Virus record (IMG/VR): IMGVR_UViG_2531839666_000011
Length of the DNA: 13,866 nt
Reading direction: 5' to 3' (one strand)
Source: a virus
Lineage: Duplodnaviria; Heunggongvirae; Uroviricota; Caudoviricetes
This document shows, in pieces, positions 10,736 to 11,845 of the stretch; position 1 is the first letter of the stretch; the number at the start of each line of letters is the position of its first letter. The notes beneath the pieces are model-generated. The model did not search any database and was not told the origin of the DNA. It saw only the letters and a list, made by a program, of their open reading frames with translations. The position numbers and the translations under genes were made by a program.

Positions 10736-11845
10736 TCAGGCCACCGACGAACGCACCAGACCGCGCCAGTCAAGTGGTGCCACACCGGCATCAATACGAA
10801 TTTTTGTGGCAATGCCGTCAGTGGTGAAACCTTCCTGCTGATCAATGTATGGCGTGTCCACACCATCCAGCCAGGCCACTTCAATGGTGTCAGTGCCCTG
10901 TGCCGCCGCCAGATACCAGGTTTTCGGATCTGCCGCATCAAGACGCGCTTCCGCAATCACCTCAGCAAAGTTCTGGATGGGGTTAATGACACCGGCGTTT
11001 GCATCCGCCCCTTTCACACTGGCCGATTTGATGGTCTGGTTCGCCACCGTCTCCAGTGCCACCGGTACCAGCATAAAGGCCGGACGGATATTCAGGGCGC
11101 GCTCGCCTTCTTTCTGCAGGCGCATCATCTGACGGGCCGCATCCAGTCCGGAAACGGAGATCCCCCGGTGGCAATATTTTTGTGACCGGCATGGAACAGC
11201 GCCTTACCGTCGGACAGTTTCGGGTTATCCGTCAGCACCTTGTAAACCAGGTCACCAATCGTTGCCTTCGCCGCACGCCCCATCTTCATCGGCACGTCCA
11301 CCAGCATATTCAGATCATCATTGATAATGGCCTGGCGGGTGATGGAGAAAATCTCCCCGTAGGTGGCCAGAGCAATGGTCTCCTTGCGATCTGAGGTGGT
11401 GATGTATTTATACTCCGCCCCCTCACGAACCTGACGCAAAGAACCAAAACCGCCCATCCCCACGCGATACGCTGTTTTGAAGTCTGACAGGCGCCCCTTA
11501 CGGGTCCACTTCTGGAAGGTTTCTTCTGATTCCTCCCAGCCCTGGATCAGCCCCTTGTTCGACACATCCAGCAGGATATTGCCAAAATCAGAGGTGCTGT
11601 GCGTCAGCGCCAGCCCGACCATCTGCATGGGGTTAATAACTGGCCACCCCAATACCGCGCTCCGTCAGTGACATGCGAGCCCATTCACGCAGGGTCATCC
11701 CGTTATAGGCGTTATCCTTCTCGACATTTTCAAATCCGGCACGGGCCAGCATCGCCTGGCGGATCCCGTCTCCCACAAAATTGCCGTTTCCGGCATAAAT
11801 ATGGGCCGGTGTGTTTTTGTTGGTCGGCGAGGACTCCTTGCCCAT
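10736..11845 (-). pseudogene. Major capsid protein, about 370 aa, split into three ORFs by two single-nucleotide frameshifts (possible sequencing artefact)
   Basis: ORFs 11633..11845, 11125..11652 and 10736..11128 are collinear in three frames and join cleanly: ...SLTERGIG | WPVINPMQMVGLALTHSTSD... at the G4 run (plus C4 11647-11650), and ...HAGHKNIATGG | ISVSGLDAARQMMRLQKEGE... at the G5 run (plus C5 11162-11166). Capsid identity is inferred from position and size; it does not look like lambda E. Confidence 0.6.

Follow-up and report, generated by a model that had tools for sequence, protein, structure and literature searches.

A ClpP-like prohead protease/scaffold/major capsid protein fusion gene, interrupted by five probable assembly errors, in a lambdoid prophage sequence

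A single gene for protease, scaffold and capsid protein has been described in Pseudomonas phage MD8, whose gp5 (693 amino acids) comprises, in this order, an N-terminal ClpP-like protease, a scaffold region and a C-terminal HK97-fold capsid domain, and whose capsid has phage Mu as its nearest relative by HHpred (PMC8508860). In Pseudomonas phage JBD30 the scaffold (gp33), the protease (gp37) and the capsid protein (gp38) are separate proteins (PMC11445458), and the capsid of phage Mu is represented by structure 9jod (PMC11915804). The HK97 capsid protein, gp5, carries an N-terminal scaffold-like (delta) part that is removed by the phage protease, gp4, which is of the S78 type and has a gene of its own. 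In curated collections, the fused arrangement is covered by NCBIfam NF045540 (scaf_prot_MCP1), which bears the name 'ClpP-like prohead protease/major capsid protein fusion protein' and is found in E. coli lambdoid and Stx prophages. Both the gene family and its three-in-one architecture are thus already described and curated.

We analysed a 13,866-nucleotide stretch of Caudoviricetes DNA (IMG/VR record IMGVR_UViG_2531839666_000011; hereafter the window), in which a preliminary description had assembled a stand-alone major capsid gene of about 370 amino acids at positions 10736-11845 by joining three ORF fragments across two frameshifts. The three ORFs lie on the minus strand in three different frames (11633..11845, 70 amino acids; 11125..11652, 175 amino acids; 10736..11128, 130 amino acids). 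Once joined and corrected they yield a 369-amino-acid capsid sequence that is 99% identical to intact homologues over 100% of its length, so the proposal that they form one coding sequence stands; that sequence is the C-terminal domain of a gene of about 659-686 amino acids, not a complete protein. Nor do two corrections suffice. Alignment of the window to phages 1720a-02, ASU11 and Stx2_14040 and to E. coli OkiPb01692 (94.5-98.9% identity) located five single-base indels, four deletions and one insertion, with exactly one at each junction of the three ORFs (Table 1). When all five are corrected, a single uninterrupted ORF runs from 12793 down to a stop codon at 10738-10736; its longest form has 686 amino acids and a TTG start at 12793, while the starts annotated in relatives are GTG at 12757 (674 amino acids) or ATG at 12712 (659 amino acids). 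That the fragments come from one gene and not from different genes follows both from this single ORF after correction and from its intact state in relatives. As written, the window holds no uninterrupted protease-capsid ORF, only fragments of 116, 97, 176, 70, 175 and 130 amino acids.

The frame-corrected protein scored 1002.7 bits against NF045540 (curated cut-off 475) and, in this corrected form, aligns end to end with the model, residues 44-684 matching model positions 2-651 of 652. It also scored 1154 bits against PHROG 133, and a Pfam search of the 686-amino-acid protein returned two domains, CLP_protease at the N-terminus and Phage_capsid_4 at the C-terminus. The lambdoid and Stx genes of NF045540 share 98-99.9% DNA identity and the same neighbours with the window, and differ from its gene only by the five indels and a few substitutions. 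Since the ORF in the window is broken while near-identical relatives carry it intact, the sequence is, as judged from these alignments, a member of NF045540 by descent that is either broken or mis-sequenced, and the fragments at 10736-11845 are likewise read as the capsid-encoding 3' portion of one long gene rather than as a separate gene. Our overall account, to which we assign a probability of roughly 0.78, is that the locus is a gene of about 660 codons for a protease, a linker-scaffold region and a capsid protein, and that the five indels are errors in a patch of about 1.6 kb of a draft assembly. What looks like an unusual, broken, non-lambda capsid gene is thus a routine member of NF045540, which calls for caution with such loci.

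Table 1. Coordinates of the fusion gene, its domains, the five indels and the adjacent decoration protein gene in the window. Residue and codon numbers refer to the corrected 686-amino-acid protein.
Feature	Position	Strand	Description
Head decoration ('cement') protein gene	10322..10648	-	108 amino acids, intact; Pfam Phage_cement_2 E=7.8e-19; PGAP: DUF2190 family protein
ClpP-like prohead protease/scaffold/major capsid protein fusion gene	10736..12793	-	broken by five single-base indels
ClpP-like (S14-type) prohead protease domain, predicted	12181..12664	-	residues 44-205; interrupted by indels at 12491 and 12376
Linker and scaffold-like region	11611..12180	-	residues 206-395; holds indels 11868 and 11635 and ATG 11845
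HK97-fold major capsid protein domain, predicted	10748..11610	-	residues 396-683; Phage_capsid_4; interrupted by indel 11161
Frameshift 1	11161..11166	-	C6->C5 on the plus strand (coding G6->G5); codon 546; splits the 175- and 130-amino-acid fragments
Frameshift 2	11634..11635	-	extra A on the plus strand (TTATAA->TTAATAA); codon 388; splits the 70- and 175-amino-acid fragments
Frameshift 3	11868..11869	-	missing C (GGGCC->GGGC); codon 310
Frameshift 4	12376..12379	-	C4->C3 run; codon 140, just past the catalytic His motif
Frameshift 5	12491..12491	-	missing C (GGTCGCCCCC -> GGTGCCCCC); codon 101, ahead of the catalytic Ser motif

Within the N-terminal domain, Pfam CLP_protease (PF00574) matched residues 58-203 with E=1.8e-36, and NF045542 ('head maturation protease, ClpP-related') scored 224 bits. 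A search of the PDB returned ClpP chains down to E=3e-18, with the Ser and His motifs aligned; these place the putative nucleophile at Ser113 (codon 12458-12456, in an AASMAS motif) and the histidine at His136 (codon 12389-12387, in an MIHKP motif), while the third, acidic catalytic residue is ambiguous between D185 and E186. The domain is accordingly annotated here as a predicted ClpP-like serine protease with Ser and His motifs. The flanking genes, protease included, had been described as lambda-like; this applies to the portal and tail genes, but the protease is ClpP/S14-like, whereas that of lambda is of type S49, and it lies in the same ORF as the capsid domain, whereas in lambda the protease/scaffold and the capsid protein are encoded by separate genes.

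The capsid family, which the preliminary description had left to a profile search, was readily found: the 369-amino-acid product matched Pfam Phage_capsid_4 with E=3e-57, well outside anything chance would give, and in the full corrected protein the match to this family (PF25209) had E=5e-56 and 191-195 bits, against a gathering cut-off of 27, and covered model positions 7-262 of 262. The 369-amino-acid part did not match the lambda E family (PF03864) even at E<=10, which bears out the earlier impression that the protein is not lambda E-like. Mu-like_gpT (PF10124) scored 34.7-37.1 bits (cut-off 20.1), but over model positions 227-285 of 289 only, which indicates a distant relative of Mu gpT rather than a member of PF10124. 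In the PDB, a single-sequence search reached only ClpP chains, and a profile of the scaffold and capsid parts was needed to reach the Mu-type capsids, with E=1.3e-8 for JBD30 (8rkc/8rkx) and E=8.5e-6 for phage Mu (9jod). The homology to JBD30 gp38 (8RKC, 8RKX) and Mu (9JOD) is remote and confined to the capsid domain, with a shared HK97 fold; only about 60-130 residues align by sequence, and the best Pfam family of the window's capsid domain is Phage_capsid_4, not Mu-like_gpT. The finding of Mu as the nearest capsid relative of MD8 agrees with these gpT-type matches. MD8 itself infects another host and is distant in sequence; its gp5 is likened to the window gene by its published description.

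Structure prediction was carried out on a 398-amino-acid homologue (P0063) that is 99% identical. With an alignment of 150 diverse representatives, AF2 gave a confident model (pLDDT 91.6, pTM 0.81), which replaced an unusable one built from 30 close homologues (>=65% identical; pLDDT 38). The predicted model has a paired-strand hairpin, as expected of an E-loop, a long helix, as expected of the spine helix, and structural neighbours of the HK97 fold: Foldseek matched HK97 prohead and head chains at E of about 1e-9 and placed 9jod at rank 44. The capsid domain shares this predicted fold with HK97 gp5 at a sequence identity of only 9-14%. On the strength of the Pfam match, the Mu-type profile matches and the confident AF2 model, we assign the protein, as modelled, to the HK97-fold shell proteins of the Phage_capsid_4 family, with the Mu gpT type as distant relatives.

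Intact versions of the whole gene occupy the same place in phage 1720a-02 (AGR48351, 659 amino acids, 'prophage Clp protease-like protein'), Stx2_14040 (BCI49015, 674 amino acids, 'phage protease/scaffold protein') and ASU11 (URQ03898, 706 amino acids, 'major capsid protein'), and genomes annotated by PGAP give the intact gene the same name as NF045540. More broadly, the capsid family comprises 11,563 representatives at 50% identity (E<=0.001). We determined the domain makeup of these relatives by a local HMM search of the top 150 representatives and by Pfam on a 10-protein sample. The top 150 (P0181-P0330) are mostly 640-750 amino acids long with the capsid domain at the C-terminus, and 86 of them contain a ClpP-like N-terminal domain; in other sampled relatives Phage_capsid_4 is fused to a protease of the S78 (HK97) type or of the S49 (lambda C) type, and some relatives of about 450 amino acids have no protease. 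Across phages, therefore, Phage_capsid_4 is fused to at least three types of prohead protease (ClpP/S14-like, S78 and S49).

As the sequence is written, indels at codons 101 and 140 disrupt the protease domain and those at codons 388 and 546 the capsid domain, and neither processing nor assembly would be possible, in keeping with the earlier statement that the frameshifts, if real, would abolish capsid production. Three of the five indels change the length of a homopolymer, and the other two are the duplication of an A and the loss of an isolated C. The two frameshifts recognised earlier had been placed at a G4 and a G5 run; the G5 run at 11161 is indeed the site of one, but the other, an inserted base, lies about 10 nt from the G4 run. 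This insertion generates a TAA stop at 11635-11633, is absent from every relative compared, and gave 0 matches in an exact-pattern scan of the GTDB species-representative genomes. Frameshift 3 severs the upstream 176-amino-acid fragment (11851..12381) from the 10736-11845 part. Of about 470 complete-genome records of E. coli with a matching stretch, 19, from several serotypes, share the C5 variant at 11161, and PGAP flags both of the two such records that were checked as 'frameshifted'. Given this recurrence, the 11161-11166 tract appears to be a trouble spot, either for homopolymer error in long-read sequencing or for slippage in replication.

The origin of the sequence could be traced by its fragments, since those specific to the frameshifts have unique out-of-frame tails. 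In a collection of 15 billion proteins, the 167-, 70- and 176-amino-acid pieces occurred in no source other than E. coli 9.0111 (EII25361, EII25348 and EII25352), an O128:H2 STEC strain represented by a JCVI draft (WGS AEZZ; PMC3359367, PMC3852854), so the window was either taken from this draft or has the same sequence. None of the 5,426 complete E. coli genomes exceeded 99.1% identity to the gene. The most informative comparison was with locus L013 (GCA_050227515.1), which is 99.915% identical to window positions 4484-13866: the two sequences differ only by the five indels and by substitutions at 11186, 11968 and 12803, all inside 11166-12803, and the flanks of this 1.64-kb patch, 6.7 kb and 1.06 kb long, are 100% identical. 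Three further loci (L014, L016 and L011) gave the same picture, and all ten contigs encoding an identical gpU carry the gene intact at 659 or 674 amino acids. Seven substitutions in the window were absent from the first six references, five of them synonymous and two non-synonymous. Eight changes in 1.64 kb against none in the other 7.7 kb, with indels outnumbering substitutions, argues against natural decay. We therefore regard it as likely, from these comparisons, that the five indels belong to a low-quality or collapsed-repeat patch of a draft assembly, and if so the gene is probably intact in the prophage itself. As probable errors of a single old draft, the frameshifts should not be taken as evidence of a defective prophage. 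Homopolymer runs and substitutions are no more frequent in the gene than in its neighbours, which likewise speaks against natural decay. At 11968 the window has an allele that other prophage variants commonly carry, a hint that the consensus was mixed from several prophage copies.

Defective lambdoid prophages are common in STEC, and the strongest alternative is that the five indels are real, in which case the fusion gene would be a recent pseudogene in strain 9.0111 and the prophage unable to form heads and defective. Several observations suit this reading: STEC prophages are often genuinely defective, private frameshifts also occur in gpJ (1998) and in a tail assembly gene (2826), two of the five indels do not change homopolymer length and so are not classic pyrosequencing errors, and the G6->G5 variant is also present in the 19 complete-genome records. 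Natural mutation, however, should scatter over the prophage and produce far more substitutions than indels, which the clustering seen against L013 contradicts, and a first knockout leaves no selection for more mutations in the same gene. The private substitutions are also mostly synonymous, and the fragments are confined to one draft assembly. We consider a recent pseudogene unlikely, and long-term pseudogene decay was rejected given the few, mostly synonymous substitutions.

Far less probable is a single burst of error-prone synthesis, for example by SOS polymerases at a DNA break during abortive prophage induction, that killed the head gene of one prophage, or, as a related idea, a slippage-prone on/off switch of capsid production in these widespread prophages at 11161-11166, where about 4% of the complete-genome records with this allele have G5 instead of G6. 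The first of these by itself, a real mutation cluster laid down by error-prone repair synthesis, deserves slightly less credence than the two combined. SOS polymerases prefer -1 frameshifts at G/C, four of the five indels remove a single C or G, and all eight changes fall within 1.64 kb; a stretch of poor consensus gives the same pattern, though, and a repair tract has no independent evidence and needs real indels, which are themselves unlikely.

The region between the two domains comprises residues 206-395 and contains ATG 11845. No Pfam domain was found there in a scan of the corrected protein. It consists, in order, of a Pro/Ala-rich linker, helices, and a conserved N-terminal helical part ahead of the capsid core; in the AF2 model, helices H5-13, H19-32, H52-65, H81-90 and H101-110 precede the core. 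We infer a scaffold role for it. The preliminary description had placed the start of the capsid gene at ATG 11845, which is in frame and from which a 369-amino-acid product holding the whole capsid domain would be read, given only two frameshifts. Against a stand-alone gene of about 370 codons, however, all intact relatives read through this ATG into the protease domain, NF045540 spans both domains end to end, most top relatives are 640-750 amino acids long, and direct reading of the sequence before the ATG (CTGCTGAATGAAATG) found no clear ribosome-binding motif. An independent gene starting at 11845 is contradicted by the intact homologues and we reject it as scarcely credible. As the reading frame in every intact relative runs upstream to about 12712-12793, ATG 11845 is on this comparison an internal methionine and not the gene start. 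Least credible of all, and rejected, are programmed ribosomal frameshifts or another recoding signal, for which the frame changes themselves are the only argument. In base-by-base alignments with more than 20 related loci none of the sites recurred apart from the C5 variant at 11161, the shifts run in both directions, thousands of homologous proteins are full-length, and the programmed site expected for the module, in gpG/GT at 7872-7866, is of a very different kind.

The fusion gene sits in a head module that departs from lambda in its middle. Its upstream neighbour encodes a lambda-family portal (PF05136), and downstream follow the cement protein, a Gifsy-2-family protein and the lambda-type tail genes Z, U, V, G/T, H, M and L. 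Where lambda has C/Nu3, D and E, the window has the fusion gene and the cement gene; the decoration protein belongs to Phage_cement_2 and did not match the lambda D family. The suggestion of a mosaic head module thus holds in that the middle of the module is non-lambda; the mosaic is nevertheless a standard layout and no peculiarity of the window. Related sequence is present in 2,070 of 5,426 complete E. coli genomes (roughly 38%), with many Stx phages among the carriers, and the gene order was the same in all ten contigs fetched via identical gpU. By these sequence counts, E. coli lambdoid prophages with this arrangement form a very common group.

The domain order, together with the analogy to HK97 (delta domain and protease), lambda C/Nu3 and Mu I/Z, suggests how such a protein may work. 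The polyprotein of about 660 amino acids would co-assemble on the lambda-type portal into a procapsid, with its protease and scaffold parts facing inward; the ClpP-like domain would then cleave off the N-terminal half, roughly, to leave a mature shell protein of about 30-35 kDa, in the manner of the removal of the HK97 delta part, and the mature capsid domain would expand and be decorated by the 108-amino-acid cement protein. Protease, scaffold and shell protein would in this way be made as one chain. Our search of the literature found no direct experimental work on the E. coli fusion protein or its processing, only the bioinformatic description of MD8.

Several smaller features of the window were noted in passing. 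A slippery heptamer, GGGAAAG, lies at 7866-7872 on the minus strand near the end of the gpG ORF, and is probably the expected lambda-type programmed -1 site for the G-T tail assembly chaperone fusion. The insertions in the tail genes are a private +G at 1998, near codon 19 of the tail tip gene gpJ, and a private +A at 2826, which splits a lambda-I-type tail assembly gene into ORFs 2730..3116 and 2477..2869; no relative in the comparison has either insertion, and they may be further assembly errors or real defects. Between the stop of the fusion gene and the cement gene, at 10694-10712 on the minus strand, is a hairpin (GCCCGAAAGGGC) followed by seven T, which is terminator-like but has a stem of 4 bp only, so that a terminator scan called no site after the fusion gene. 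The record of the related phage Ayreon annotates a terminator under the stretch homologous to 10694-10712. Finally, 147 nt at 2177-2323, between the tail assembly gene and gpJ, are missing from the closest complete genome (L004) and present in other relatives (L018 and L023), and look like ordinary intergenic variation.
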